The translations under genes and the position numbers were made by a program. The notes below the pieces were generated by a model. That model had not been told where the DNA came from. It worked only from the letters and a program-made list of their open reading frames with translations, and ran no database searches. A stretch of DNA of 59,579 bases from Reclinomonas americana ATCC 50394. Lineage: Eukaryota. The first letter of the stretch is position 1. Each line of letters opens with the position of its first letter. Below, piece after piece: positions 1-43,273 of this stretch. The stretch lies in NCBI GenBank assembly GCA_048213135.1, contig PS015122.1, positions 220,981 to 280,559 on the forward strand, read 5' to 3'.

Positions 1-2024
1 CCAGTGCCTCTTGTACCAAATTCGTATCGGGGCGACTGAGCTGCGCCAGAGAGACGCGCAGTGGCAAGCGAGCCGCACTTGATTCGCGCCACTGCTGCCA
101 CGCCCAATGCGTCAGCACCGACATACTCGTCGTCTTGCCGGCCCCGCTGTCACCCAGCAACGCCAACACCCGGCATTGCTGATCGTTGATAAAGGCCTCA
201 ATCTGTCGATTTTATAGAAGGCACAGTCTCCAAGTAAGTTCAATGTACAGGAGCACACTGGCAAATGACAGCACGCACCTCTCCGCGCAGCTCACGTGGC
301 ACCTCCTCATGGCCGGAGATGCGTGGCGTCGCGGTGCACCGCAGCGGCACGTACATCATCATCTCCTTTTGCATGTCTTTGTTTTCTGAGTAGAACGCCA
401 GTTCACGCTCGCACAGTTGTTGCAGTTGAGCATGCAGATCAGAGATGAGACGCCCAATTGGTGCTGAGGGAGGATGAGAGGCGTGAGGACAGCATCAATG
501 GGAGACGCAAGGCACGCAGAGTGCACACACCGGTGCGTATGTCTTGCAGTTGCTTGATAACACGGTTCAGGTCGCCCAGCAGTTGCAGCTGGCGAACAAG
601 CCGAAACAGAGAGCCTTCGCTACTGCCGCTGCCGAGGAGCTCACGCACTTCTCGGTCGTGTGCGATAAACGTCTCACGATGGAAGACAGAGTTGCGAATT
701 TCACGCAGCTCGGCGATGCATGCCCGCTGCGACACCACAGGAGATGGTGTCAGCCGAAGCCTCAGTCGACATTAATGTGCTCACTCACCTCCATCTTGGA
801 CTCTATCACCATCCACTTGTTCTTCCCGCTGCCCGCGAGACCCGCATGCAGGAGAACCGAGGCAACCATGGTCACGTCCCACGTCTCACAGCTCGGCGAC
901 GCCTTCGGATTCGAGTCGTACGCCCTCCTCCACGCCTCGATCGACGGCCACACATCGGCGTGAAGTTTTACACAGTGTCCATCTGGTTTGTGACTGCAGC
1001 GCACGGACAGAGAGAAAAGTTTGACATGCCAGGTCGATGGAGAGTGAGACAAGAGACGATACGCACCTTGCAGGAATGTCTCTTGTGTTCAGATGCAGCC
1101 AGTTCATCACGTCAAAGTCGCCACGATGCTTGCGCGCAAAGTCAAACAGGCCGCGTTGCACACGAAGCTGCAGTGCACGGGCCACCACACTCAGTGCCGC
1201 CACCAAACGGATAAAATTCCCCGGCCTGCGTGGATGTGTGTGTGTGTCTCTCCGAGTGAGTGGCAGCGCTGCACACGTACTCTTGTGCAGAACACGCAAT
1301 CGTACCCCGTGTTGCTCGCAGTCTCTGCCGGCCCCGCCGCCGCGCTCTTTGCAGCAGTCACCGCAGGCGGAGTGAATGGTTCTTCTTCGCCATCGACACC
1401 CCATTCAGCAGCGTCAAAGGTTGGCATTGGTGTTGGGCTGTATAGGAAGTGATGATGAAGTGAGTGAGGATAGAGACAGAAGCCACGCATACCAGCAAGA
1501 GACAGCGACAAGAAGCGTGTTCTGAGACTCCTCGCAGCGGGACATGCACATTCACACGCAGGATGAAACCTGTCACAATAAGCACACACGCACACACAAA
1601 CCTTCCCGTCTGCTGCTGTGTGACCACCTCCATCTCAAACGTGGTTTCGTCGCACACTCCGAGGGCGGCTAGCGGCACTCTTGCCGCCAAGTCCAACTGA
1701 TACGGCATCGGCTTGATGATGCGGTCGACATCCAACGTTGGATCTCCGCACTCTCTTCTCAAGATGGTGCACGCGCGTGCAAGCACTTGTCCAAGTGTGT
1801 CGAGTGCGCGGACATCGACCACGGTCACCGGGCGCAGTGTGGTGAGAGACGAGCTCCGAGTGCTGCTGGCGACAAAGTGCACGGCAAAGGTGCGATCCTG
1901 CAGGGGAGGAAGGTGGAGGAAAAGGAGGTGGGCACACAAAGGGAGAAGGGGGGAGGGAGCAAGAGCTCACCATGACTGCGTCAAGAAAGATTTGTTCCAG
2001 GCGGGACTTGCATGACACAAACAT
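1..2024 (-). CDS. NLR-like STAND protein: ubiquitin-like domain + DZIP3-type HEPN + NACHT NTPase (3' truncated by window edge)
   Basis: Frame-consistent GT-AG exons give ...GNFIRLVAALSVVARALQ...WDVTMVASVLLH...IAELREIRNSVFHRE (R-x4-H at 679-696), then YVPLRC...IEAFINDQQCRVLALLGDSGAGKTT (Walker A at 131-154)...LPLRVSLAQLSRPDTNLVQEAL. Start is either 2024 or the ATG at the first donor (~1973). Confidence 0.8.
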
Positions 2025-2074
2025 GCACGTGACGGACTTCTCATAACCTCGGGCTCATCTTCTGTTTCTTTATT

Positions 2075-4599
2075 CTAACCATTGGCGGCGATGAGACGAT
2101 CGAGGATCCACAGCTTCCACCGTCGCCACGCACGCATTAATCTCCGATACAGTGGCTGCAGGTTGAGCGTGTACTCGAACAGTGTGATGACACTGAAGAG
2201 CGTCAGGCCAAAGTTGACGCGGTGCTTCACGCGCCATCTGTGCGGTGATAATGATGGTGCCGGTGGTGGTGGTGGTGGTGACAGCGGTCCGCCGGGTGGC
2301 GATGGGCTGAGACTGGGCAGGGTGTCGGCATCCGCCACCGGTGCCAGCCTGAACGAGTCGAGGAGGGATGTGGTGGCGGGTTTCGCGGCTGCCGGAGGTA
2401 ATGAGGCGGCAGCCGCTGCTGGTTGTGGTGGTGGTGGTGGTGGTGGCGACGTTGGCGGTGACGACGCAAGGCGCTTGTGGTGCAGATCGAGAACAATCCA
2501 GAAGAGAAAGGCGTCGCAGCCCCAGGTGACCTCCAGTGGCACGCGCAGCACCGGCTGCAACGCACCCTGTCGACGTTTTGAGCGCTTGAGAAACACCTGG
2601 AAAAACGTGCTGTGATACGGTGAAGGAGGGTGTCAGTCCAGAGCGACAACGTGGATAGCACAAGTCGAGGGGCGCGCACCGCAGCTGAATCCCCTCGGCC
2701 AGCTGCAGCATGTTTTCGGCGACCTTTTTGCGCAGAAATGACTTGACCCTGGCGGGAGAGAACAAGAGCAGTGAGCTCACGCATCGCCGACACAAGTGCT
2801 GATGAGCAGTAACCGTTGCGTGTTGGGCGGCCACACGGTCGAGCGCAGGCTGTGCTCCATCATGGCGGCCTGCAGATCGAGCCAGTAGCGCAGCACACGC
2901 GAAACCTGGTGAATAATGTTGCGCACGCGATCGACCACCTGCACGATATAGGCACGTGTCAGTCTGCCTTTCAAGGCTGCATCCATCGCCACATGAACGC
3001 AACATGCAGTGCGCCAGGTCCCGAGCTCAACTGCGTCGCAAGGTGAGCGGAGAGACACGGATCGGCGTGACACGTGGGAGCTGACGCACTTTCATCTCGT
3101 CGGGCAGCTCCTTTTGCATCACGGGTGGAAACGGTAGCTCGACGATCTTCCCAACCCATAACAAAGAGATGAGCTCGTGAGGTGAATGCAAACTGCAAAC
3201 GCGCAGGTCTTACATCTTCGCGCTCCTGCTCCTCGACACTCTGTAATGATTCCTCGTACTTGCGGCGGCGGTCGTCGGAAAACTTGCAGATGGACCACGA
3301 CTTGGCCACACCGAGAATGTACCGGCCCATGCGAGAGAGAAGCTCCACACGATAACCTGCAGTTTGGGTGAAGGGGATGGTGGGAACAGAGAAGTGAAAC
3401 AGATGTGAAAAGGAGATAAGAAGGAGCAGCTGGCCTTCAAGACCAAGAGACTCTTTCTTTCTGTCCCCGTCCAAACCTTGACTCTCGCCGCTCAGCGACA
3501 TGGTCGAGTAGGGTGACAACAGATTGGTGATCGCACCCACCACATCGATTGTCTCGCTGTGACATTGTAGTGTGAGCACTCGCGATCACACTTCACGCGC
3601 CAAGCTGCATGCGCACACGCAACAGTGCCGACATCCACTTGGGAGCGGTGAACGATCGCCGCACTCGCACATGGTGATTCACTCGGCGCAGTCGCGTCGT
3701 GTACTCGACATTGGTCGTCGCTATGTGTTGCCAGTGAGGTTTCGTTCTGACCTGCCTCTCCACTTGTCAATAGCCACCACTCACTCACCCGTGTATGGTC
3801 CCCACTTGCCGGCCAGCGAGTTGCCAATGAGAAAGTACGGAATCGTCTGCGTTAGTAGGTTGCCGAAGCGACGCTGCCACTGATCGGTGGCATACGACGT
3901 GGTCGGCTCGCCAAACTGTTCCTCCGTGCCGGAACGAGCCAGGTTGCGTGCATGCACGCTAAAGACGCCTGGTGACACGCTTCAGCGCCCGCAGCACACG
4001 AGGCTGAAAAATTGACTGTGACACTCACCCTTGACGTTCTCCACCTCGCGTGCCCGGGCCACCAGGCGCAAGGCCAAACGCTGCAGCAACATGAAGAGAC
4101 TCCATCCACGCGGAGGATCCAGACTGAACAGAGAGCGCAGGTACCTGCACACTGCTGTTGAGAAGAGAGAGAGAATCGCTGTGCCTGTCTCCCCCCACTG
4201 GCGTGTTGAAACACAACTCAATCAGAGGAATGCCGCGGCTGAGGGCGTCGCGGACCGACTCCAAGTCGGCGACCGAGTAGTGGTACTCCTGCGTGAGGCA
4301 ATGAGACAACAACATGAACAGTGGAATGATCATCCATTCAGCAGACCATGCCCACTCCGTAGCTGCGATGCCCCTCGCTCTGAATGTAACTGTGTGTGTG
4401 CATATGTGAGTGTGCACACACATGGAGACAGATAGACAGAGTGCGAGTCGTGTTGTTGAACACACCACAAAGGAACCTCCACATTGGCCTTTGGTTTGCA
4501 TCGCAGGGCGAGATCGATCTCGGCGTGGCTCAAGTCCCACGGATTGGCGGCATGCTGGCTTTCCCAGTTGAGCTTGGCATGGAAGCGCTCGACTTCCAT
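2075..4599 (-). CDS. Hypothetical multi-exon protein with a Pro/Ala-rich stretch and a hydrophobic segment near the C-terminus
   Basis: Chain of GT-AG bounded exons from MEVERFHAKLNW to FGLTLFSVITLFEY...IAANG*. No family recognised; could be more than one gene. Confidence 0.45.
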
Positions 4600-7237: not shown

Positions 7238-7504
7238 GTCGACAACACATTGAGCACCGACTGGCCACTCCTACATGCACGCAACCACCGAGTCAGGCGA
7301 ACGAAGGAGGGAGGGAGAGGAGAGANNNNNNNNNNNNNNNNNNNNNNNNNNNNNNNNNNNNNNNNNNNNNNNNNNNNNNNNNNNNNNNNNNNNNNNNNNN
7401 NNNNNNNNNNNNNNNNNNNNNNNNNNNNNNNNNNNNNNNNNNCGGAAGGGGGCGATAGACAACTCCGCGCAGTTTCTCCGATCCCCTGACTCGTGACAGC
7501 GTAG

Positions 7505-11742: not shown

Positions 11743-14700
11743 ATGTCAACGCGGCAAGCGCGGCTGGAACGCCGACAGGTGCACGAATCCGAGTCAAACA
11801 CTCATGCACACGCTCTATCTCTCACACACACGCGCGCGTTCTCTCATCAGCTGGCACAGAATCGGAGGAAACAGCGACCGCCCGCGACCAACAAAGGGCC
11901 ACCCATTGTGCACACAGTGGAAGATGACGATGACGATGACGATGTGCAAGCAGCAGAGGTCACTGTGGTGCCCGCGAAGAGAACCGCAGCAGCCGCAGCA
12001 ACAGCAACAACAACAGCAGCAGCAGAGAAACGTGAGTTAGAGAGAGAATATGCATTGGGTTTGCCTTGCTTGACTGATGATGATGATGAGATGATTCCGT
12101 AGCTGCGCTTCCACCGGTGGGAGCTGGGGAGATGAGAGTGTTCAATCGCACAGCGAATCGAGCGCGATACGAGGCTCGTCGGCGATGGTACGCGCATGTG
12201 CCTTTCCCCTCCTGGTTCGTACAATGTGTGAGCGTTTTTTTTCTGTGCAGGGAACTGGACGTGCTGCTGCCGTCGTTTTATCACCGTCTGCAGCAGCGCT
12301 ACGGGGAAGTGATGAATCTGGGGGCGGCGTTTGTGTCGCGGCTGTGTCGCGATCTGCGGCCCGATGAGCTGCAGCCGACCGTGTCGATTCGTGCGCTGCT
12401 GGACCTCGATCATGTGGTGGACTTGGAGGAGGAGGAGGAGGTGCGGAGGGCGATCCAATGTCTCTCCTTTGTTGTCACGTGCAGTTGTTGACGATGCTGG
12501 TGCAGAGGCAAATCGTCAATGCCGTCGCCTTGTTGAAAGACATTGGATTTGCCGTGATCACTCGCCAGGGTACGCATCGTTCGCCAGTGTCGTTGGCGTC
12601 GCCGGTGACTTGCTCCTCACCACCACGCCGTGCGACACAGGTGACCAGGAACATGTGCGCTGGCATCAGTACAACATTATTCCAGAGGCTCGCTCACTGC
12701 TGCTGGCCATTGTGCGCTGCATGTGCATGCCCGACGGTGAGGCACTCGACTCGGAACGCATGCAGCTGGTTAGCGAAGGGCTGAGCGTCGGAGGTACGCC
12801 GGCGACAGTCGAGTTGCTCACCGAGGTCAGTCAGTGTCTGGAGAAGGGATGACTGTGGGTGCGGAGATTCATTTGTCGGTGATGGTGGTGGTGGCTGCAC
12901 AGACACTGCACGAGTGGTTCGACAATCTGAAAAGCAACTGGCCGGCGCCATCCGAATCCGACGAGCCCGTTCTACCCGTGCTGCAATGCTCCACGAATGG
13001 CGCGAGTCGGCTGTACACACACTCGGTTTATGTGGGAACCAGTCGGCGGCACGAGATGGTGGCCGTCGGCATTGGGTTTGTCTCGCTGATCCAGTGATTG
13101 TGTGCATGTGTGTCGCGCACGCTGATGTGTTCCACAGCAAGAGTGAGGTCTCTGGTCATGTTCTCATGCAGGACTGGTACAAGGAGCCCGCAGAACCGAG
13201 ACGAAGTGGTGAGTCCATCAAATATACGAGGTGGAAAAACCTCAACAACGGGATCTCACTGATTCGCTTCCAGCCCTTCTTCGGTTGTTTTCCGTCATCA
13301 ATCAGCGTTTCCTTGCGCACGAAGTGACGGCCGTCTACGGCTCCTCGCTGTCGCCGTGGCGGGTGGTCGTCTACGCCTCAGGTCACCGAGAAATCACCAA
13401 TGGTGGCACGGCGTTGAGGGTGGATTTCGAGTCTGCGCAAGTTACCGCGTACTGCAAGCACCCTCCTGAGGTTTTCCCTCCTCCTTGCGTCTCACCGTGC
13501 CACTCTTGTGCCAGTTGCCGCTCGTGTCCTTCTTCCAGCCAGAAATGCGAAGTCTCTTTGAGAGATTACTGCGTCATCCGTACTGGGTGCGACATAGGTC
13601 TGTCCTGCGATTGCAATCACATTCTCGCCTGCTTGGTCTCACGCAGACGGGGTTGTGTGCAGATTTGTGCGAGGCAAGCCACCTCACCTCTCCACCCTGG
13701 AGCGGCTGCTGGCGTCCATGTTCCTGCAAGAGTGGGGCTGCACGGTGCTGGTGCTGGCAGCTCTCAGTGTCTTGTTTGGTCGGCCCTTCTGGGAGGTGTA
13801 CCATGTTTTCCATCAGGAAATACCAGTGCGTGGGGGGATGCCATGTGTTGTCGAACTCGTGCCTTCTTTTTCATTCCGCTCAAAATGCAGGGGTTCGGAC
13901 GGCTCATGGAGGAGACCGACATGCGCTTGCATGGCATACGGCATGTCAAGGAGGAGTTACGATAGATGCCTCACTCTCTCCCTCCCTTTGCCCGCGCTCA
14001 CTGATCTTGAGCGCGCGCACACACACAGGGTGCTCTTGTGGACGTCGGATGCGTGGCTCGATGACAAGTGGGGACTGCGGAGAGAGGTGGTGGAGTGGGA
14101 CGCCATGTGCCAGCTCGATCGCATGATCCGCACGCTGGCGGCGCGTGAGTGCGAGGTTGGAGTTGGCCTTGAGCCGACATTGGCGACGCGACAAGGTGAG
14201 AGTTTTTTTGGGGGGGAGACTCTTTCGTCTGTCCTCCGTCCAATCCAACTCACATTCGTACACGACGCTGCTCCAGCGAGCGTGCTCACGCTGAGTGTGC
14301 TCGAAATCGTCGGTGTGCGCGTGTGTGGCACCAAGTTGAGCGATCTGGAGCTCGTGCTGGCTGTTCCACTTTACGTGCTGGCTTCCTGCACGGTGCGTGC
14401 ATATGCGTGTCGCGAGCAAAGTACATGTGCCAATCGTGTTGCTGCAGAAGGACTCTTCGTTCTCCTTGCGTGTCCATGTTGGCAATCGATTCGCCGGCAC
14501 CGCACCGCTCCTCGAAGTGAAGTACGAATCGTCGATGGCCGTACTGAGTCGCACTGTGCCTCGTCCGGGCGCCTCGCAACTGCTCCTCTCTGTGCTGGTG
14601 CCGATTCCGAACGCCCTGCGTGGGCCAAAAGTACGTTGCATTATTCAGCAGACTGCGGCTCCTTGGTGTTGACACGCTGCTGGCAGATGGCACACGGTGG

Positions 14701-16702
14701 CTACTATATCAGTGCATCGCTCGAGGTGCAACACCCGGATGAGACGAGTCGCCTGGAGACGTCGCCAATCATCTGGTGGTGGAGTTGCGTTGTGCTATTT
14801 CCGTGGCCACGTGACACTGTTGAGGGCGCTTCTCATATGAGGCATTGTGTCGCAGAGTCTCCTCTCGGCCTGTGTCGCAGTCGTGCCGACTCGGTAATTC
14901 TGTGCAAGCCAATTGAATTTCGCGACAAGTGCCTGTACTTTGCGCAGATGGTGTTTGAGGATGTGCCGTGGTGTCTTCGCGGTGCGTTTGGTGCTTGCTT
15001 GCATTTTGGTTGTGGCACGTCTCATGGTGTCGCCGGCAGTGGGTGACTTTGTATATATTCGTCGTCACGCCCGGCTGACGATCTGTCGCATTCTCGCGCT
15101 GTGGGAGACGCGAGATGGCGAAGACGAGGGCGAGCAATTCATGCGGGTTCGAGTGGTACGTACACTGCGTCGTCGCCCATCATGAGAGCGCCATGGTCTC
15201 AATCCCCTGCACAGTTCATCCGACCTAACGAAGACCCATGGGTCCCGGCTGGCGAGCTGCCGAAGGATCTGCACGAGCGCGAGGTTTAATTTTCCTCGCC
15301 GTACTCCTTCCCCCTCGCTCTCTTCTGTGTCTCACTTGCACCTTTGTGCGGCAGGTACTCATCACTAACAACGTGGTCGAAGTCGAAATCACTTCTGCAG
15401 AAATGATCGTCGGTCGCTGCTTGGTGATTCCGCTCGACGCCGATGTGGTGGATGCGTCGGCCAGCGTCGAGACGGTGCTCACGGATGTGGGTGTACGTCT
15501 CAGCGATTTGAGTCATGTGTTCTTCTGCCGGCACATGTTTGGTGTGGAGGAGTCGCACATGATGGAGCAGGCGAGGGCGGAGGATATCTTGCCCGCCATC
15601 GAGTTGCAGCCGTCGTTGTCGTGCCACTGCGCTCGTGTGTCGCAGGTGAGAGAGTTGGAGAGAGTTGGAGAGAGAGAGCATGGATGTGGTGTGGCGCTGA
15701 CCACGTATCGGTGCAACCAGCTTGCTGAAGACAGCAATCAAGGATGGGTGTTTGATGTGGCGCCCGGCGTGCCACTGGTGCTGCGCCTGGCCGAGCAGTA
15801 CGGCATTGGTACGTCAGCGTGCAACGAGTGCATGTGCGTCTCTGTTCTCCTCATGTCTCTCGACAGAATGGCGATCGGAGAATGAGATTACCGCGGTGCC
15901 GGAGGAGCTGCGTTTGCTGGAGGCAGCGTGCGACGCGGTGATCCGCTGGCCGCTCTGCGACTGCGCGCATGTCGCACATCCAGCCCTGTCCGCCTGCCTT
16001 CCCTCGCAACGGAGCTGGCACTCGTATTTGTGCGGCGACATGCAGTTGGCGCGCCACATGAAGTGCAGCCTGGCGACGGAGTTGATGGGCGGTGCTCAGA
16101 GCGAGCCTGCGGACCCGGCCAAGGCATCCAATCGGCTGCGCATCGAAGCCCTCAGCGCCGTGTCGCCGTCCTCGGTGGCCAGCGGCAGCGGCAGCGGCAG
16201 TCAGCAACAACAACAACGCGAAAAGCAGGCGCAGCAGCAGCAGCGACGAAAACGGCCGAAGCGGAGTCTGACGGCCATGCTGCTGGCCACCGGCGGTGAC
16301 AACACTCGAATCCTCGTGCCAGAGGGCGATTCGTCGAATGGCCGTGTATCTCGATCGGGAACGCGTAGCACCGGCAGCGGAGCGCGCGGCGACGAGTCGG
16401 ACATGGACGAGTCGGTGCCAAGCAGTCAGCAGGACTGGTTCCGCAAGTCCTCCGAGGCACTGTTGACGTGCATGCTCCAGCAGCGCGACTATGTGGAGAT
16501 GTTTGTCGGGGCGCTGTGCCATCCGGCCACTGCGGACACGACAGCGGTCGTTGCCGAGAGCCAAGTCGTGGAGAGTGGTGGCGGAAGCAGCGTCAGCGGT
16601 GCGGGCAATGCCGGCGTCGCTGGCGACGGCGATTCACTCGTGCTGGACATGAGCGAGGACGAGGAGGAGGATGAGGACGACGATGATGAATATGTGAATT
16701 AA
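11743..16702 (+). CDS. Large protein with a BAH domain and acidic tail (chromatin-associated by inference)
   Basis: VGDFVYI...ICRILALWET...FMRV...FIRPNE...HEREVLITN...EMIVGRCLV...FFCRH (~15040-15540) is a BAH signature. The ORF ends EDEEEDEDDDDEYVN*. Confidence 0.7.
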
Positions 16703-21424: not shown

Positions 21425-24400
21425 TACTCATCCTTTGCCGTACCATTGATTTGCCAGCGAGTGTTCGTATTCGAGAGCTACAATCAGGAGAACAGGACTA
21501 CTCAGTGCCCGGCCTTCGCAAAATGGTGCCAGCAAGCACACGCACTCCCAACGCAACATTGGCGCACGATTCCATAGTCGACGATGAACAGTCGTTCGCG
21601 GTGGCTTTCGATTTCTCTGAAAAACATACCAATATCAAAGTGCTCACGGTCGATGCGATACACGCGGTGGCCGCTGACGGCCGACACTTGACGCACGCCC
21701 GGCACAAGGCCCGCCATGAATCTGCATCACGTCAGCCATCAGTTGTGACACTCAAGCGTGGAAAACACGAGCGGTGGAGACGGACCTGTGCACTTCGGCG
21801 TCCGAGAACGGATCCGCGTGAATGTGAATGTAGTAAATCTCCGCAATGCGTTCCTTGAGCTGTGTGGGTTGTGTGTGTGTGAGAGAGAGAGCACACACTA
21901 ACCCTGCAGAAGGTGAAGAAGACGACGAGACCTGAGACGCTGGTGCAATGGCCACGATTCGACCGCGGACGAATCGTGCAATCCGATCGCCCAGCAGCAG
22001 CGCCTCGTCCACATCGTGAGTGGCGCTGTGACGATCGCAGTCCGTCAGAAGAGATGCAAACACATATTGACCAGCGAAGCAACGCAACAGAAGGACGGCA
22101 GCACCGCCGTTCTTGGCCTGCGCAATGGCACGCCACACAGACGTCTTGGATTTGACAGTCATATTACTGCGAACGAAATTCAGTGAGGGCAGGTGACGAC
22201 AGCGAACCGCATCCACCAGAGAGAGACTCAACAATGTGGGCGAGTCGAGGACTAATATCTGTGCGTGCAGAGCCACATGAGAGAGCAGCAGTACAGCGAG
22301 ACACACTCACACGAAAAACACGCAACTCTCGGGCTGCCGATCAGCGCCATGGCGACGGCCAGTCGACGCCTGGTGTCCGGAGTGCAGGCACTGACACGCA
22401 GATTGGCACTCTTGCGGAGGAACAGCACGCGGGTCATGGCAAATGTGGCGTTCACCAAGGCGACGCCTGCAAGCGTGATACACTCAGTTTCAGAGAGGGA
22501 GGCAAGGAAAACGGTGTGTCAGGTACAAACCCTCAAGACCGCGCAATCGGCCCATGAACTGCAGGTGTTCTCGCACAGTAAGCTCCTCCCACATGATGTT
22601 GTGCTGTGCCAGAAAGCCTGCATGCACATGTCCCGCAGACAGTCAACAAAGAAAGTGCAACCAAAGGCATCATTGCAGGAGAGACGCACCGAGTTCCTGC
22701 ACGGCCATGTGATGCTGAATCATGACGTCGAAGCCACTGATGAGGGCACGGCCAGCAAAGGCGTTGCTGAGACCGACCAGCACTCGCAAGCTGTGTCCCC
22801 CCGATTAGGAATTGGTGGAGGAAGAAAGATCAGAGGCGATGGACACACGCGCAAACGCAACAACAGTGACACGCCGGCACCACGATGTGCCAAGAGAGCC
22901 GTACACTCGCCAGGACCCACGCCCAACGAAAGACCGGCCCACGCCTCGCCTGTCAGCTTGTGCCAATCTTCGGCCGCAGTGTCAAAGTCTTTGGTGGTCT
23001 GTGAAAACGCACGACCGCCAAAGTGAGTGCTCTCAATCCGTGCGCAAAATGCGGGAGGGAAACATACTCGTATGCCAACAGCCAGCAGACTGGCTTCCTC
23101 GGCCTCGCGGACCAGCGTTCGCATGTGCTCCCTCTCGGCCTCCTCATCGTCGCGCAACTGCAGCAGCAAGTACAGCTCAGATTGTTGATCAAAACACAAA
23201 AGTCCCCCGCCAACAATGGCGACCGACCTGCTGAATGTCGGCGTCCAGTTGCTCCTCGATGCGCACAGCAATGTCGGCGACTGCAGAGGGTACGCGCTCG
23301 CTGGAGCTCGTGTCGTTCCGATCGCGCAGTGATGCCGACTGGTTGTTGGCAGAAGCCGCCGCATTGCCGACGATGCCACTCTGCCGAATGCTCGACTGCG
23401 CAACGCTGCCGCTGGCCCTGTGTGTGTGTGCAAATCAGGAAAGATTCAACATCAGGAGCTGCTGCCGCTAACAACGTGAACGCAACTCGTGAGGCCCCCT
23501 CCTCGGCAGCTGACTGCGGCTTCCCAACGATGCCGGGGGCGGGACGAGGAGCGCACTGCGATTGAAATCCGAGGCAACGGATTCGGTGGCCGGCGATGCC
23601 GCCGCGTCTACACACAGAGGGAGGTGAGGTGCATGAGGAGGTGTAGTTTTGCGAGAACAAGCGGGTCAGCTCTCTCGCACCATGCGCAGCTGCGTGGTCG
23701 GCCTCGTCCAACATGCCTGCTTCGTCGTGCAGCCGTCGTACGCGATCCATTGGCGAGGAGGGCAGTCGCATTGAGCCTGCGCGCATGAGACCGGGCTCGG
23801 GGAACTCCACCGCCTCTGCATCAAGAAGAATAAGAAGGAGGCACTGCCATGAGAGATGACAGGGGTCGATCAAACCTCGCGCGGGAGATGGGAGCGTGCG
23901 TGCAAACAGCGGCGCTGATTCGTCGGCAATCGACGCCGGCGAGTGAGCAGCAAGTGGTGACGACATGGCGTCGGGAGACAAGGCGAGACGATGTCGGCTA
24001 CCGACGGCGGCGGCGGCAGCGAGAGCATCGGGTGATAGGTCTTGTACCACGCTGTCGGAGTCGTCGACCAAATGTCGCTGAAAGCGATCCATGGCCACAC
24101 GCTGCTCATGGTCGTGGTCTGCGCCATTCTCGCCCCCCACCGGAGTCGTTGGCGACGCGGCAACCGCGTGCAGTGCCGCCGGAGGTGGCGTGTTCCCCGA
24201 CGAGTGTATCGACTCGGAGCGCTCACTCACCAGGTCACCGAAATCCTGCATCTCCAAACCAGCTGCGCACACACGCACGTGGTCAGTCGAATGCACTCTG
24301 TCCACGGACGGACGAGCAGCAAGTGACGCACTGAGAGCCTCCGCCCTCTTAATGTCCTCGGGAAGCCACTGTTCCACGGGTGCGTCGAGCATCTCCTCCG

Positions 24401-26370
24401 GATCACTGTACAAGTAGTGGGAGCGCTTCCACCGATCCGGGCAGCACCACGAGCCCCAGAACTCGCGAGTGAAGATGAACCACACACTGCGCCGCCGTCC
24501 AAACTTGCCAGGTCGCACCAGTTGCAGATACCTTTGGGGGAGAGGAATGAGAACGGGGAGGGAAAAAAGGAGGCGTGGCGCGTCGGAGGCACACGTACCA
24601 ACTGAGAATAAAATACAGCACCGCCAGGCCAAGCATGCCGGCGAGTGACAACAAGATGTTGGGTTCTGTGATGCTGGTGCTGGCCGCACCGTTTCGGTGA
24701 ATGTGTTGCAGGAATCTGCGAGAACGGAGCGTCAGGTTGTTTGGCAAGAGAACAAGGCAGCGACAGAATGCGAGAAGCGAGCGGACCTGTCGAGCAGCAG
24801 CGATGGATACAAACAGGAGACAATGACATGCGGGATGGGCACGGTCTCGCCAAAGTTGATAATGTAGCGATTGAGGAAGTGCGAGATCACCGCCGACGGC
24901 ACAAGCAACAGGGCCGTCACCACTGCGATCGGTGTTTAAATTGAGCCCACGGCACACAAAAACAACAACAGCAACAGCAACTACCGACCGAGAGCGGTGC
25001 GGTGACGACTGAAGAGCACGCCGAGAAAGTCGGCAAACAGGGAAATCACGGCACTCCAAACGGTGAGAACCACCGCAATAATGTACAAGGAAGCCGTGTT
25101 CCACGGTCGCAGTTGCACTGCGTAGCCCAGCAAGGCCACCATGCCGCATAGGGCTTCCATGCGCACGAATCGCAGCAGCCACTGCGACACACGATAGTGC
25201 CAGCCACGCAAACCGGCCTGTGCACGAAAGCACGGGAGGGTGAGGTGTGTGCGCGTGTGGATGAGTCGAGTGAAGGGGTCGGCACACCAGCTCAAGGTAC
25301 TGGCGCCGCATGGTCTCATTGTCGATCGTGTACTCCATGACAAATGCCGGCAGCCACAAATGCAAAAGGATGAGATACACAATCGCTATGGAGGGGCGCA
25401 CAGTGAGAATCACAGCGATAAGCACACAGGGCGCCGGCGGTCACGCAACGTCCGTACGACGCCGAGAAGAGCTTGGTCTGCGCCTGCAGCGTGTCAAACA
25501 CTTGCACGCGTGTCTCCAGCGAGGCCTCGGTGAGATTGGACTGCTCCGGATGCTTGTTCACCAGCGCCCACCGATACGCAGCATTGTCGATGAGCGCACG
25601 CGCAGCCACCAGCGACTCGCCATACTGCTCAATGCTGCGATTGTACATGGCCGAGTAGGCCACCGCATCCAGCGTCACCGTGTCAAACACGTAGCCGGCG
25701 TGATACGAGGCACGAGCAAAGCGCGTCTGCTCAAACAGCGTCGAGTCGAGCAAGCTCTCGCTCGGAAAGCGCAGTGTGGACAGGTCGACGCCACCGTACT
25801 AGAGACACACACTGAGCTCCCTCTTGGCGACGCACAGACAGACACACACACTGACCTCCACGACGCTTATTTCCAAGTACTCTAACAAGCCCGCACCGTC
25901 TAGTGTCGTGTTGGCACTATCCCAGATGTGCTTCCCGGCGGCACCACCGGCACGAGCATCGCTAAAGGGCAACTGATGAGTGATGCGATCAATGCCCGCA
26001 ATGCGCAGGGCGGGCAGGCGCGGTTTCGTGGGCAAATCCGACACAAAGTTGGTGTTGCCGATCTTGCTCGCCACCAACAGGTCGCCGAGCACGAGCAACA
26101 TGAGCTGAGTCAGAAGAGGGAGAGAGAGTCATCATCAAATCATGTTCGATATCGTGTGTGCGTGATGATGGTCTTCGTGGAGTACCATCAGTGTGGGCGA
26201 GAGGAACACCAGGTAGTTGAGTGTGGTGTTGCGTTTCTGCGCAGTGGTGGGCAGGCAGAGAGGAAGAGTGTGTCAGTGATTTTGATGTGTGTCTGTGTGT
26301 GTGCACAGAGTCTCTGTCCCTCAACTCTCTCATGATAGGTCATGATGAGCGCGCCCGTGAGCTTGCCCAT
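21425..26370 (-). CDS. ABCA-subfamily half transporter with a degenerate nucleotide-binding domain
   Basis: KRNTTLNYLVFLSP; TM helices; YLQLVRPGKFGRRRSVWFIF; GLSLGVGPGECTALL; FLAQHNIMWEELTVREHLQFMGRLRG; RRLAVAMALIGSP; LATHDVDEALLLGDRIA. Stop position approximate. Confidence 0.85.
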
Positions 26371-28692: not shown

Positions 28693-28791
28693 GGAATGGT
28701 GGCCAAGTCAAGTGAGACCAATGCTTGCAATGCGATGAATCGTGTTTCATTGCAGCAGAGTTGTTTGGTTGNNNNNNNNNNNNNNNNNNNN

Positions 28792-29439: not shown

Positions 29440-30195
29440 ATGATTGAGCAGGCATTGCGAAGGTGCGTCTGCGCTTGTCTGTGTGTGTGTGTGTGGATTC
29501 TTGTCTCCGGAATTGACGCGATGATGTGTAATGTGCACGCAGGCTGACGGTGGGTGCGATTGCACTGGGCGCGCTGGGCTCGCTGGCGCAGTCGTCGCTC
29601 TACACAGGTGCGCGTGNNNNNNNNNNNNNNNNNNNNCCTCGTTCTTCTCTCTCCTGTCTCCTTTTGCTCACCTTCTCCCTGCACCACAGGCTCAATACAA
29701 CGCCGAAGAGCTGATCACCCGCCGTGAGCAAGTGTCGCGCCAGATTCGCAGCGGTCTGGAGCAGCGTGCACGCGAGTTCCACTTGATTCTCGACGACATT
29801 TCCATCACACATCTGGCATTCGGCAAGGAGTTCACCGATGCCGTCGAGCGCAAGCAAGTCGGTGAGTGAGGTGAAGAAGCAGCTTTCACCCGTGGCTGCT
29901 GCTGACCCATGCTTGTGTGTGTGTGTGTCGCTGCGCAGCCGAGCAGGAGGCCGAGCGCTCCAAGTTTGTGGTGCTGCGCACCGAGCAGGAGAAGCTGGCA
30001 TCGATTATCCGCGCCGAGGGTGACGCACAGGCTGCGCGTTTGATCTCCGAGGCCATGAAGGCTGGTCCGGGTCTGGTGGAGGTGCGCCGCATTGAGGCCG
30101 CTCGTGAGATTGCTGCCACGCTGGCCAAGTCGCGTAATGTGGCATACCTGCCGTCTGGTGGCAACGTGCTCTTCAGCATGGGTGCAGCGGCGTAA
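29440..30195 (+). CDS. PHB1: Prohibitin 1 (middle part in N gap)
   Basis: AQSSLYT...[16 protein letters not shown]...[36 protein letters not shown]...IIRAEGDA...[21 protein letters not shown]. Confidence 0.93.
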
Positions 30196-32313: not shown

Positions 32314-33992
32314 ATGAGCACTCGCCGACTTCGCTCAGCGTTGCGTCTTCCTCTCTCACTCTCCTCCTCCCCCCATGCGCGCGTACTGCTTTCACCTCTC
32401 TCTCATCTACAGCGATTCGGTGGTCAGCTCGTCTGTGTCACCACCGGCACTCGTCGACACAATGACTGTTACACCCACGACGACCGCCAAGACGCGCACG
32501 TTCAGTGGGCGACGCAGGAAACGATCACACGAGGAGGCTACTGTCAACCATGGGAGTGGTGATGATGACGACGATGACGATGTTGATGCAATGGCGCCTC
32601 GACGACATGCCGGTGCGCTGTCGTTCTTCCCGTTGACGGCTGCGGTGAGCAAGGCAGCGAGGAGGGAGTCGTCGTCGGCCTCGCCACCACGGAAACGGGC
32701 TGCGCGTCGTGCTGGTGGAATGGGGAGTGTGCTTCATGCGGCTGGTGATGCTGTGCTGGTGGAGCATCAGCACTTGGATGTGGGCCAGAAGCGGTTTGGG
32801 GTGATTACGTGCTCCGTGTGTGGCATGGTATTCACGGCCGGTCATCCGGGTGATGAGGTGGGTTGAGGGGGAGAGGGAGAGGGAGAGGGAGGGAGGGAGG
32901 GAGGGAGGGAGGGAGGGAGGGAGGGAGGGAGGGAGGGAGGGAGGGAGGAGAGAGAGAGAGAGNNNNNNNNNNNNNNNNNNNNNNNNNNNNNNNNNNNNNN
33001 NNNNNNNNNNNNNNNNNNNNNNNNNNNNNNNNNTGCTCGCTTCTGCAACGACTCGGAAAAGGCGCTGCGTCAATGCACCCGCTGGCTCAAGCACGGCGTC
33101 GATGGTGTGGAGCGAATGTCGGCACCGGTGCGAGGTCGGAGTCCAGCGGCGGCAGCGGCGGCGGCGACGACAACGCTGTGGATGGTGCGACATCCCACCA
33201 GTGAGCGACTGTGCTCACGGCTGTTGGCGGTGCGTCGGGTGGTCGACCGTGAACTCGGTTTCGCCTCGGATGCGGCCACCGAGTTGGCCGACTACACGGT
33301 GAGTCTCACGGCCTGCATCGTAGCTGGTGACACGGCTTGTGACTTGTTTTCCCGGCACAAACGCAGGTCTACTTGTGCACGCGCCAGTGCAACATTGTCG
33401 GCTGTCTGTTTGCACACTCGATCACGGATGCCGTGCGCATCTCGCCAGTGGGTGAGACAACTCTTGCTCACTCAGCGAACGAGTTGCGGTTTGCTCTGAC
33501 ACGCCGATGGGCAGGAGGAGGCACATGTGTGGGGGATGCCGAAACTGCCGACGACTGTTGCAGCTTGCAGCTATCGCAAGAGGATCGTCGGCATCTCGAT
33601 TCGGTGGCGAGCACGTTGAAAGTGTGCGTAGCAGAGCAAACGCTCGTCTTTTTTGGTGACTCCCGCCTGAACCTCGACTGTGCAGTTGTCGTCCTGCGCC
33701 CGCCGAATTGATGGGCCGCTCACTTCTCGGTGTGAGTCGTGTGTGGGTTCATCCGAGCTGTCGGAGGCAAGGTGTGGCCGCTGCGCTGCTGGATGTCTCC
33801 AGGCGCACCTTTTGTTATGGAGTGCACCTTGCGGAGCATGACGTGGCGTTCTCGCAGCCGACCACCACTGGCAAGATGCTGGCGATGAGCTACACGGGGC
33901 GCAAGGACTTTCTCGTATATTCCGAGACGGGAGGCTCGCCAACAAGATCGTCATCTGCGCCACCAACACCACCACCACCACCCCCATCATAA
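32314..33992 (+). CDS. ESCO: Eco1/ESCO cohesin acetyltransferase
   Basis: QHLDVGQK.FG..TCSVCGMVF..G...DE (PIP-like box + zinc finger), VVDRELGF, IVGCL, LGVSRVWVHPSCRRQGVAAALLD, VAFSQPTTTGKMLA..Y. Confidence 0.93.
32876..32962. repeat. (GGGA)n/(GA)n microsatellite in an ESCO intron, abutting the N gap
   Basis: Directly visible tandem repeat. Confidence 0.95.
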
Positions 33993-34113: not shown

Positions 34114-37100
34114 TCAGTCGACAGCAACGACGGTGCGGCTTTCGACAAACGCAACTGCATCGCTCTCCAACTCGAACTCCTCGTCGCACTCCTCGTCATC
34201 GTCACCAGCTTGCACCACGTCATCGTCGCAGTCATCCTGCAATACACACGCGCGTGTCAGACAACGCCACAGCCGTCGTCTCTTACGCACATACCCGTTG
34301 CGGCACAGTCCACCTCCACGTACTCAGCAGCGTCGAATCCGGCTCCGGTGGCACCAGCACCGAGCCACGATTCACCGAGTCCACCAGCGACGCCTCTTCC
34401 AGGTGCCCGCGGATAGCGGCCTGCACAATAAAGCCCACAGTTTGAGAGTGCAGATAAGAGATAGAAAGGAGTGTGAGAGAGAGGCAGAACGTACCTCGAG
34501 TTCCACCGCCACCTGCGCGAACGACGGTCGCCGGTTGTGGCACGTCGACCCGTCCCAGCAGCGTTCAATGATGCGAGCCACGGGCTCCGGACAGGCACAA
34601 ATGTCGGGTCGCGCACCCAGGGCGGCCACCACTGCCGCCATTCACCCAAATCAGACAGCCGCAAGTGCGAGTGCTGTGACATCATCACGCAACTGTACAC
34701 CACTTGAAACTCGTTGGTGGCGGTGTGGAATGGCTCCCGTCGCGACATCATCTCGTTGAGAAGCACACCAAAACTGCGAGACCGATTTTGGTTAATTAAC
34801 TGTCGACAGACACACAGAAGCACATTCCTCTAGTCACCTGTACACGTCTGCACAGGAAGGGGGAGAGAGGATTAGCACCAGACGTAAAAAGTACCGACAA
34901 GATATCGAGTGTTACAAACCTGCTTTCTCATCGTATTTCTCTCGTCGCATGACCTCCGGAGCCTGAAACCGTGGTCAGCAAAGAAGTGAAAGCAACGAAA
35001 GTCAACTCCAGACGCACCATGTACCCAATCGTTCCGCCTGGCGAGTGCGTGCACGTGAGGGAGGAGATGAGCTACAACGTGAAACCAACAATCGAGGCAC
35101 AAGCGAGTGCGCACCCACGCATTCACAGCTGCTGTCGACTCGCGACCTGCTTGCACACAGTGAGTCTTGCTGTGATCGATCCTCTTCGTGTACACTCCAC
35201 TCACCGCTGGAAGTCCATCAGGCGACTCAACCCAAAATCGGCAATCTTGACACACAGTCGACTGCCATTCTTGAACCACAAAATGTTGGCCGGCTTTAAA
35301 TCGTGATGCGCAATGTGAACACGGTGAAGGAAGGCCTGCATGACAAGAAACACACTCATGAGAGACAGCGACGATAATACAAGGACACCGTGGTGTGCGT
35401 GTGTGCGTGTGTCGCGGCACCATGGTTCTCGCGATCTGCAGGCACAGGTCCAGCCTGGTTCCACCACACAAAGTGAGGGAGAAGACACAATGCAAAGCGA
35501 CGCCACTCATGCTTATCGCGTACCGAATCCGCAGCGAGGCAGCACCACCCTCTGCACCGTACAACCAAGATTTCAAGTCACCTCCATCTATAAACTCGGT
35601 CACAATCAACCGATGCGGTCCGCGCACTCGAGTGACAGCTCCCAGCAGATTGACAACACCGGGGTGCCGTCTGCGCGTCAAAGCCGAGGTCAACAGGGAC
35701 ATACCCCACAACAAATAACACGAAAAACAACGCAACGCTCGACTGAGAGCACGCAGTTCGCGGAGCAATGGACCCTCGGCGCGCTGCAATTTCGCCGCCG
35801 AGTCCGACGGCGACCAATCCAACACAACCTCCTTGATGGCGACCACTTGGCCCAGCAAACGCCCTTCGTACACGACGCCATACGAACCGCGTCCAAGCTC
35901 TCGTCCTTTTCGTAACGTCGCTGGATCCAATTCCAAGAACTCAAACTGGCGGCTGATGTGAGCACAACACCATGGGCTAGATGGCAGTGAGCACAGGAGA
36001 TCACTCAACTTCACGAGACACGGTGGCATTGCTCTCTCTCAGTGCTCGCTCCTGCAGCGCTTCCAGACGTGCCAAACTCGCGTCGTAAACCACCTGCTGC
36101 TTGTGCGCGCAGCTGTCAGGCGACTGGACATGCGTGAACGATCATGAACGGAGAGATGCACAGACCTGCGTTACTGCCTCCCCCGCCGCCTCCTCCTCCT
36201 CAATCAAAACGTCATCCTGTGTGTTGTGCGCAAGGCATGAGTAGGGCGGAGAGAGAAGACTCGCTCTGGCGACAATAGACGCACATCAACAGCTGACTCG
36301 GCAGAGACCGACAGCGGTGACAGCTTCGGAGCCAGCGGGGAGTTGCGAGCGCCGGGCGACGACGACGGTCCACCAGAGGACGACGACGTAGGCACACCTG
36401 CATCACCAAAACAACACAGTGAGCAAAGGGAGCGTTGATGAGGAAGATGCAGATCGAGAGAGGGAACGCAACGGGAGAGAGCACCGGGTGTGCCGATCTT
36501 GATGAGTGGCGTGACGGAGCGTTCGCCACCATCGTCACCAATCGGCGCGCGATGTGCATCCCGCTGTGGAGTGCGTACAGGTGCCCTAGGTAAACAAGAA
36601 CAAGGCCACGAGTGAATCGAACGTACTCGCACGCATGGACAAGCAGGAGATCACGAAAAACCTGTTGATGGAGACAGGCGGAGTGATCGAGTCGAGATCG
36701 TGCGCCGGGTTGGCCAGAAGATGGACTCCGGCACCGGCTGACAGCCGTTGCATGCGTACTCCGCTGGCTGGCGACTGCAGCGCCTCCTCATGCGCTGGCA
36801 AGTCAATGTCCTCCTCCACGCTGGGAGTCGCACTGAGGCCGCCGCTGTCACCCGTAGGCACCAACAGCGTGTCGTCAGGCAGCAGAACAGCGCGGTGTTC
36901 GTCTTCTTCAATGTCTTCAGAATCCAGCGCGCTGTGTGTGCGTGTGGCGCTCGTCAGTCAGTCAACGAGGATGAATCTAGTGGGGAGATGCGTGCCTTTC
37001 AGTCGACACGGAAGTGCCAGCGCTCTCTGTCTTGTACTGATACGCGGCCTCGGGAGGACCCAAATAGCCTGCATGGCGTGTGCGCAAGTTAAGCACAGAT

Positions 37101-40750: not shown

Positions 40751-40870
40751 ATAGTAGTAGTACAANNNNNNNNNNNNNNNNNNNNNNNNNNNNNNNNNNN
40801 NNNNNNNNNNNNNNNNNNNNNNNNNNNNNNNNNNNNNNNNNNNNNNNNNNNNNNNNNNNNNNNNNNNNNN

Positions 40871-43273
40871 CGGACGAACTCGGGGGCCACCAACGCCGCA
40901 AAGCGCACGGCCTTGTCGGAGGCCGTCTCCGCCTCGCTGACCGCCTTGTGCAGCAAGGAGTTGAGCAGCAGCTGGTGCGTCTGCCGTGTGCGCATGACCA
41001 CTCGCGCGCCACGGTAGTCCGAGTCGTCGGCCGATTGCTTGAAGAGGTTGACGTGGAGCTTGCCGACGCCTGCCGAAGGGGTAAGGGGTAAGGAGAAGAG
41101 GGATAAGGGGGAAGGGGAAGGGATGTAGGGAGAGAGAAGAGGCGAGAGGCGACAGGCGAGAGGTGACAGACGAGAGGCGAGGGGCGAGAAGTGACAAACG
41201 AGAGAGGTGAAAAAAGGCGAGAGTGGTGAGAAACGAGAGGTGAATGGCGAGAAGTGAGAGGCGAGCGGTGGAGACAACAGGCAATTGCAAAGACGACAAC
41301 CGGTAAAGTGTGAGAACGTGAGGAGGGGACAACAGGCGAGAGGTGAGATAATATCAGAGGGAGAGAGAATACAGGAGGCGAGAGAAGACAGAGACAAGAA
41401 AACGAGAGAGAAGACAGATGAGAGAGAAAGGAGGTGAGAGCCAAATAAAAGAGATGAAACAGGAGAAGAAGTGATGGGAGTGACGCATGAGAAAGAGAAG
41501 AAATATAAACGCAACCGTGAACACGTAAGCCACTCTGTCCCTCCCTCTTCCCTCTCCCTCTTCTCACCTCGCTCCTTCCACGCCTTATCCACGAGCATGT
41601 ACAGCTTGGCCTCGACCTCGAATTCGGTCTTGTCGTGCTCCTCGCCAGAGGTCACCTGCTTCTTCTCCAGATTGACCTTTGGTGAAGCCGCCGCCAACAC
41701 AATGCCGGCGTTCGGGTCCTCGTCCTCGCCACCCTCTCCCTCGTCGGGTGTCGACGCCGATGCGCCAGAACCACCAGCAGCAGCGGTTGCCAGTCGTGCG
41801 CCGAACAATGGTTTGCCAGCAGTCTGCCCAGCCAGCGGTGGTGAACACAGAGCAATGCAAAGGAGTTGAACTAAAGGTCACGCAACAAGGCCCTGCACTT
41901 TGTTCATCGTGTTCTGCAGGAACGACGAGCCGAATGGCTTGACGCTGAAGGCGGGTTTGTTGGCGCCGTCGCCAAAGCCCTTGGTTGCGGCATTCTCGGC
42001 CAGCTTGGCAAAGGAGAAGCCCATCTTGCCGCCAAAGGAGAATGTTGGCAACTGGGTGACCTTGGGGGCTGCAGAGAGAGGGCAAGGGTGAGCAAGGAAG
42101 GAGCGAAGGAGAGACGGAGAGACGGAGAGAGGGGGGAGGAGGAGGAGGAGGAGGAGGAGGAGAAGGAGAAGGAGGAAAGAGGAAGAAGAAGAAGAAGATG
42201 CAGCAGCAGCATGAGGAGGAGGAGAGTGAGAACGAGGACGAAGAAGAAGAAGAACAAGNNNNNNNNNNNNNNNNNNNNNNNNNNNNNNNNNNNNNNNNNN
42301 NNNNNNNNNNNNNNNNNNNNNNNNNNNNNNNNNNNNNNNNNNNAAGAAGAAGAAGAACTAAGAACGAAGAAGAAGAAGAAGTACAAGAAGAAGACGATGA
42401 AGAACGAAGAGGAGAAGACCAAGGAGGAGGAGAAGGGAGACGAAGAAGAAGAAGAAGATGATGATGATGATGAAGAAGAAGAAGAAGAAGAAGGGAGGAG
42501 AACAAGGAGGAGAAGGAGGGAAGAAGAAGCACAAGAAGAACACGACGACGAGGACGAAGACTGCACGCGAGTGACAGGCAGTGATCAACCCACTCCCTTC
42601 CCTCCCTCCCTCCCACCCTCCCTCCCTCTCACTCTACACACCTGGTGGTGATGGCTCCTCCGGCTCCACCGCCGCCACTGCATGCGCCTTACCCTCCTCG
42701 CCATTCGCCTCCTCCGCCTCCTCGCCATGCCCATGCTTCATCGGTGGTTCGTCACTCTCCGCAGCCGCCAACGCACTTGCTGTCGTCGTCGTTGTCGTCG
42801 TTGATGATGATGAAGAAGAAGAAGATGCAGATGATAGGACTCCACCCTTCTGCATGCATGCATGAGACAACTCGCAATGATGAGGTGATGAGGGAAAACA
42901 TCAGGCGCATAGATAGATGCATACCAGTGCAGCCACATCGACCTTGCCTGCCAGCGACTTGGGAACACGAATGCTGTGTGCGTTGTGAGTGTGACTGCGT
43001 GACAATAGGTGCATTGCGAGAGGAAGTGCTGACCGTCGTCGCGCCATTTCTTCGGCAGAGGCACGTGGGAAGTCGCCCTGTCGAGTGTGTGCAGAGTGAG
43101 GCAGAGGAACGTTGGCAGGGAGCAAGACAGACATTGACACACACACACACGCGCGCACACAAGCGCAAGAGAGAGAGAGAGAGACGCACCATGGCCACGT
43201 CCATCTCGCCATCGTCGTCGTCGCTGCCGTCGCGGTCGCGGTCAGAGATCTGCTTGCCTGCTGCCCGCTTCAT
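40871..43273 (-). CDS. NUP50: Nup50/Nup2-like nucleoporin with a C-terminal Ran-binding domain (3' end in gap)
   Basis: MKRAAGKQISDRD...GDFPRASAEEMARRR; FSFG-type repeats; VTSGEEHD...AKLY...WKERGVGKLHVN...ARVVMR...LLLNSLL. Confidence 0.87.

Follow-up and report, generated by a model that had tools for sequence, protein, structure and literature searches.

HEPN ribonucleases (RNases) such as RNase L, Ire1, Csm6 and Cas13 act as dimers, the HEPN RNase (KEN) domains of RNase L and Ire1 being activated by dimerisation, and NACHT and other STAND switches oligomerise on sensing. Animals have DZIP3-type HEPN domains fused to NACHT, CARD, DEATH and LRR, the type being expanded in Nematostella, oyster and Capsaspora (PMC3710099), and more than 50 HEPN-NACHT proteins are given for the pearl oyster (PMC9646362). 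The CXorf38-type HEPN, which belongs to the Swt1-like clade, is fused to NACHT and DEATH in cephalochordates and cnidarians, and is listed as predicted to be active (PMC3710099, Table 1 and section 16). On the bacterial side, HEPN-STAND proteins are described in section 16 of the same paper, and HEPN stands among the NACHT-fused domains in the domain key that accompanies the NACHT tree in Kibby et al. (bioRxiv 10.1101/2022.07.19.500537). A literature search for HEPN together with NACHT in protists returned nothing relevant, though the supplements of PMC9646362 and of Kibby et al. may list non-animal HEPN-NACHT proteins. Here we analyse a stretch of 59,579 nucleotides (nt) of contig PS015122.1 of Reclinomonas americana ATCC 50394 (hereafter the window, meaning the whole stretch), in which positions 1-2024 of the minus strand probably hold the 5' portion of a eukaryotic gene, rich in introns, that encodes an NLR-like STAND protein with a Swt1-like HEPN domain followed by a NACHT domain. 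Since HEPN-NACHT fusions are already in print for animals and bacteria, the earlier proposal of such a fusion at this locus, made from the sequence by itself (the original prediction), had overrated its novelty.

The gene part comprises eight exons, running on the minus strand from 2024 down to the left edge of the window. The putative first coding exon (X, 1971..2024, 18 codons) opens with an ATG at 2024-2022, presumably the start codon as the first in-frame ATG following an upstream stop, and is followed by the donor GTGAGC at 1970. Exon Y (1602..1897, 98 residues) is open throughout and flanked by a CAG acceptor and a GT donor, and the exon between Y and A (1306..1437) is translated in frame and matches no family. 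Exon A (1067..1225) would contribute the first part of the HEPN-like domain (NFIRL...), exon B (789..993) its middle, with WDVTMVASVLL at 849-881, and exon C (531..726) the half with the catalytic motif, R-N-S-V-F-H, at 679-696. Exon D (279..463) encodes a helical linker, in which the pre-NACHT motif YVPLR lies at 339-353, and exon E (2..202) the start of the NACHT nucleoside triphosphatase (NTPase), with the Walker A motif GDSGAGKTT at 128-154. The predicted protein would thus begin with a region of about 116 residues, continue through an acidic, Pro/Ala-rich linker into a Swt1-like HEPN domain with an intact R-N-x3-H motif (exons A-C), and pass over the helical linker with YVPLR (exon D) to roughly the first 60 residues of NACHT (exon E), while the remainder of the NTPase and any sensor domain would lie beyond the edge of the window. 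Neither Pfam nor PADLOC assigns exon Y to a family, and AlphaFold2, run on the single sequence, gave a model with a predicted local distance difference test score of 47.9, too low to be of use.

The HEPN-like domain

The assignment of exons A-C to HEPN, nearest to the Swt1-like clade, is of moderate strength and starts from the motif: the R-x4-6-H pattern, in which the R is usually followed by N, D or H (PMC9646362, PMC3710099), is present as R-N-S-V-F-H, with the N directly after the R that is typical of HEPN (PMC9646362). Pfam was run exon by exon, reporting to E ≤ 10 with matches above about 0.1 mostly filtered out, and the sole family reported for exon C was HEPN_Swt1 (PF18731; E 0.02, 15.6 bits, profile positions 76-99 of 115), lying on the motif helix. 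As comparators we gathered 14 Pfam-confirmed bacterial domains of the Swt1-like type, PF18731 having matched 13 of 401 bacterial genomes. A hidden Markov model (HMM) built from them scored 12.3 bits against the joined protein, at residues 280-314 (...ERACIAELREIRNSVFHRETFIAHDREVR...), a value that none of 2000 shuffles reached (maximum 7.7), and 15.8 bits against exon C alone.

Profile-to-profile comparison extended the likeness beyond that helix. With hhalign, residues 156-350 aligned to the 14-domain alignment over 90 columns (E 3.3e-4, score 28.4, template 19-114 of 115), covering exons B and C and pairing the landmarks in register: ADVW fell on D.WW, WDV on D..aL, NKW on nW, and the two R-N-x3-H motifs on each other. 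The reversed sequence scored 13.7, and 0 of 300 shuffles attained 28.4 (maximum 20.8). With the option -M 50 the score was 26.6 (E 9.3e-4), the aligned query ran from 14 to 174, and exon A was taken in as well. For scale, the Swt1 and DUF4145 profiles, which represent two true HEPN families, reach a mutual hhalign score of 23.9, below that of the query. In the ESM Atlas the nearest clusters to exon C were Csm6-HEPN, Cas02710, HEPN_Apea and DUF4145, at 0.77-0.83, values that by the tool's own calibration amount to a lead only; exon B was uninformative there.

The DZIP3 consensus presumably reads 'W/F-D-[IV]-T...LL' and then 'IRN...H', a pattern that the exons resemble. The HEPN could accordingly be of the DZIP3/hRUL138 type and the gene a relative of the animal and Capsaspora expansions, an alternative that has precedent in the DZIP3 HEPN family, for which NACHT fusions and expansions in Nematostella, oyster and Capsaspora are reported (PMC3710099, Table 1), and that we nonetheless consider rather unlikely. 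In the exon-by-exon Pfam run HEPN_DZIP3 (PF18738) was reported for none of exons A, B and C, while HEPN_Swt1 was. Bacterial comparators for PF18738 were sought and found in 0/1 and 0/401 genomes, and the control genomes gave no match either. The original prediction of a DZIP3-type HEPN joined to a P-loop module is therefore kept as regards a HEPN-like domain with R-N-x3-H, for which the Swt1-like profile and its 0/2000 and 0/300 shuffles speak, whereas the DZIP3 label finds no support at the level of single exons.

Unlikely too, and a little more so, is that the N-terminal helices of this NACHT/STAND protein form something other than a HEPN RNase, such as a lineage-specific helical adaptor or a 'NACHT N-terminal helical' domain, with R-N-x3-H arising by chance or being non-catalytic. 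Several results pull in this direction. Exons A and B taken singly had no Pfam match, the 15.6 bits of exon C lie under the PF18731 cut-off of 27.5 bits and denote likeness to the clade with no formal membership, and the match of the Swt1-like HMM is confined to the motif helix. The hhalign probability was just 38% (22.5% with -M 50), and against a DUF4145 profile (30 comparator domains; match in 38 of 401 genomes) the query scored 16.5, not above shuffles (maximum 21.2, n = 100). Chance alone would moreover give about 0.8 occurrences of a bare R-x4-H in 476 residues, as estimated from rough residue frequencies, and no homologue was found in which conservation of the R and the H could be judged. 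Because the hhalign probability stays at 22-38% and homologues are missing, the HEPN assignment falls short of proof. On the other side, the Swt1-like match stands above every control, spans about 90-114 columns with its W and D landmarks in register, and concerns the same helix for which Pfam independently selects a HEPN family, and the chance expectation of the fuller R-N-x3-H is estimated at just about 0.025. A Swt1-like HEPN thus remains the interpretation that we favour for exons A-C.

One spliced reading frame

Exons were placed from the reverse complement and the stop-to-stop frames, and junctions, phases and frame were checked by script. The joined reading frame amounts to 476 codons with 0 stops and compatible exon phases. 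All seven introns start with GT and end with CAG, their 3' ends are rich in pyrimidines, and their lengths are, from 5' to 3', 73, 164, 80, 73, 62, 67 and 76 nt. The guanine-plus-cytosine (GC) content of the joined exons is 0.63, 0.46 and 0.66 at codon positions 1, 2 and 3, as compared to 0.54 in the introns, and coding-type periodicity of GC is seen in most of the eight exons. All the sequence strings on which the original prediction relied (RNSVFH, WDVTMVASVLL, YVPLR and the Walker A motif) were found where it had placed them, and its proposal that splicing puts a HEPN-like domain upstream of the P-loop is borne out by this one consistent, stop-free frame.

The eight exons would accordingly belong to one messenger RNA. 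A wrong splice model, or a pseudogene or gene fragment in which the HEPN-like and P-loop exons are not parts of one protein, is very unlikely: the exons have no match among annotated proteins and the window ends inside the gene, but eight open segments in phase, separated by seven canonical GT...CAG introns whose sizes fall within narrow limits and with no stop among them, would hardly be expected from it, nor would the periodicity of GC at codon positions, and exons D and E align continuously to bacterial NACHT proteins across their junction.

A 318-codon open frame at 2070-3026 on the minus strand lies directly upstream of the gene start; it contains homopolymeric low-complexity runs of the Thr/Pro/Gly type, has no Pfam family, and may be a neighbouring gene or non-coding GC-rich sequence.

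The start of the NACHT domain

Exon E carries a Walker A motif of the form GxxGxGK[ST] and matches the Pfam NACHT family (PF05729) with E 4e-4 and 20.7 bits, over profile positions 1-50 of 167. The first 36 residues of the exon, comprising the strand, Walker A and part of the helix, yielded just 13.1 bits for NACHT (E 0.089), and 21.8, 20.0 and 18.5 bits for ABC_tran, AAA_22 and nSTAND3, respectively, as good as on the whole exon. Since these three families score equally without them, the 31 residues after the Walker A helix (...WAWQQW...LPLRVSLAQLS...) raise NACHT alone, by 7.6 bits.

Comparators were again taken from bacteria, where NACHT matches occurred in 78 of 301 sampled genomes; the set consisted of 30 proteins above the Pfam NACHT cut-off, each represented by its domain and the 60 residues upstream. 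Against this alignment exons D and E together (129 residues) obtained an hhalign probability of 98, with E 2.5e-13, score 77.1 and 105 columns, and none of 150 shuffles that preserved the P-loop reached that score (maximum 58.4, median 44.3). The two exons aligned as one continuous unit over the D/E junction, and YVPLR was placed on the 'y.Plr' consensus that the bacterial proteins conserve some 40 residues ahead of Walker A. A [YF]xPLR motif precedes the NACHT start, within 60 residues, in 12 of the 30 proteins, three of which have YVPLR itself. This motif is a convenient sign of where NACHT begins in incomplete genes.

Walker A by itself is generic, as the database loci and the top PDB matches of exon E are ABC ATPases and transporters. 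It is the division of exon E, together with the hhalign comparison to bacterial proteins, that sets NACHT apart from a generic P-loop, and we therefore accept NACHT for the visible part. The roughly 60 visible residues are well supported as a NACHT start by sequence comparison, and the NACHT/STAND module of the original prediction holds for them. Least probable of all is an exon E P-loop derived from another NTPase class (ABC, AAA+ or another STAND family), since, for all that AAA_22, ABC_tran and nSTAND3 come within 2 bits of NACHT on the whole exon and that related loci and PDB sequence matches are ABC proteins, NACHT alone uses the whole exon and gains after Walker A, and the match to bacterial NACHT, YxPLR included, lies far above the shuffles.

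Homologues and limits of the visible gene

The interpretation of the locus as a HEPN-NACHT gene has also to be weighed against a further group of results, most of them from searches for homologues, which count against it. A search of 5.8 billion protein clusters gave nothing for exon B at E ≤ 0.01, for exon E at E ≤ 0.001 or for exon C at E ≤ 10. Exon C likewise had 0 matches among 1.84 billion representative proteins, a search in which only close relatives are detectable, because a query of 65 residues needs about 40 bits. In the PDB the top sequence matches of exon E were ABC transporters, that is, generic P-loops. Two loci retrieved with exon E, one from a metagenome scan and one from a scan of prokaryote genomes, were both ABC_tran ATPases and were rejected as relatives. 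The 20.7 bits of exon E lie under the curated NACHT cut-off of 26.7 bits, 50 of the 167 profile positions being in the window. Walker B (signature D[GAS]hDE), the C-terminal winged helix of STAND NTPases and any sensor, whether of LRR, WD40 or TPR repeats or another domain, would all fall past the left edge, the gene being cut about 45 residues past the Walker A lysine because exon E passes that edge. Lastly, the HMM of the 14 Swt1-like domains found such a HEPN in 0 of the 30 sampled bacterial NACHT proteins.

Other searches were less informative. Exon C produced chance matches only in the PDB sequence search, PADLOC gave weak P-loop matches only, and no paralogue of any exon was found elsewhere inside the window. 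A weak, P-loop-like tblastn match at 24670-24762 lacks Walker A and was rejected as a paralogue.

Comparison with described systems and proposed mechanism

The mechanism that we propose takes RNase L and Ire1 as its model, in which ligand-driven oligomerisation builds a composite HEPN active site; their modules are ankyrin plus pseudokinase, or kinase, rather than NACHT, and the likeness drawn is one of mechanism. By analogy, a C-terminal sensor would release the oligomerisation of the NACHT module, dependent on nucleoside triphosphate, and this would bring the N-terminal HEPN domains together, pairs of which would form composite R-x4-H RNase sites. Cleavage of RNA would then halt translation or kill the cell, as a response in immunity or conflict. 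That the protein cuts RNA, oligomerises and acts in immunity is, at this stage, what we infer from the domain families.

The animal DZIP3/hRUL138-like HEPN-NACHT proteins, as described for pearl oyster and cnidarians (PMC9646362, PMC3710099), offer the closest parallel in layout: HEPN stands at the N-terminus, has Rx4H with N following the R, and is succeeded by NACHT, in a eukaryotic multi-exon gene. The role proposed for the present protein, an NLR-like receptor with an RNase effector, is likewise theirs. The gene analysed here differs from them in its Swt1-like HEPN, with no DZIP3 match at the level of single exons, and in the additional stretch of about 116 residues in front. With the CXorf38 family it would share a HEPN of the Swt1-like clade and a NACHT NTPase in a eukaryote (PMC3710099). 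CXorf38 HEPNs, however, carry an inserted zinc ribbon, while exons A-C have no visible paired CxxC knuckles. Exon B had been considered as a candidate for such a ribbon and was rejected by eye on the same ground.

Among bacterial systems, the bNACHT and HEPN-STAND proteins (Kibby et al.; PMC3710099, section 16) resemble the locus in the start of NACHT, [YF]xPLR included, with the E of 2.5e-13 given above, and share the logic of an N-terminal nuclease effector. The present gene is set apart from the bNACHT proteins by its seven spliceosomal-type introns and its position among eukaryotic genes, and Swt1-like HEPN was seen in none of those sampled. The NACHT part may resemble NACHT-WD40 proteins of Mortierellaceae fungi or intracellular bacteria, as the original prediction proposed, and a pre-NACHT motif of bacterial type is present. 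The best-matching HEPN profile is that of bacterial proteins in which a Swt1-like HEPN is combined with a DUF499 ATPase or SNF2 helicase (Ava_2192 type; PMC3710099, Table 1), where HEPN is again N-terminal and the NTPase follows; in the predicted protein the NTPase is NACHT-like, not DUF499 or SNF2. The bacterial Swt1-like HEPNs sampled here (L003-L010) had the arrangement given in that paper, being N-terminal on a DUF499 ATPase (L003) or on SNF2 helicases (L005, L007, L009 and L010).

If the favoured interpretation is right, the NLR-like design with a HEPN effector reaches one more eukaryotic lineage beyond animals and bacteria, the Swt1-like variant of HEPN joins the set of effectors, and the locus bears on how often NACHT immune receptors were assembled, or moved between bacteria and eukaryotes. 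The points of interest are the Swt1-like flavour of the HEPN, the occurrence of a bacterial-type pre-NACHT motif in a eukaryotic gene with many introns, and the lack of detectable homologues. A bolder and doubtful proposal is that a non-animal eukaryote combines a Swt1-like HEPN RNase with a bacterial-type NACHT in a protein that arose separately from the animal DZIP3- and CXorf38-NACHT proteins, either by uptake of a bacterial HEPN-NACHT defence gene by a protist, the gene later gaining seven introns, or by convergent fusion. Were this so, the gene would represent a fast-evolving, lineage-specific branch of eukaryotic NLR-like immunity with no exon-level homologue among the 1.84 billion representatives. 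At present it is a truncated single copy, whose value is that of a lead for full-genome work.

Genomic context

The window has a GC content of 56.6% and contains nine runs of N, 821 bases in all, which are scaffold gaps (7326-7442, 28772-28791, 29617-29636, 32963-33033, 40766-40870, 42259-42343, 51017-51162, 51884-51903 and 53193-53429). An Rfam scan of the window found nothing. Pfam was also run on the longest 150 of the 225 stop-to-stop frames of at least 110 residues, and the families found among them were CKS, the ESCO acetyltransferase zinc finger, class IV aminotransferase, protein kinase, lysine methyltransferase and MFS transporter. We take the window to be eukaryotic nuclear DNA because genes for CKS, the ESCO zinc finger and a kinase are present. 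The two longest open frames of the window, at 22956-24731 on the minus strand (592 residues) and at 13598-15043 on the plus strand (482 residues), gave no Pfam match at E ≤ 0.001. A CKS exon at 52552-53013 on the minus strand encodes the conserved core of a cyclin-dependent kinase regulatory subunit, the best Pfam CKS match among the open reading frames of the window having E 6e-26. A long open frame at 34875-36038 on the minus strand contains a partial protein kinase domain (PK_Tyr_Ser-Thr, E 1.8e-7) and is probably one exon of a kinase gene.

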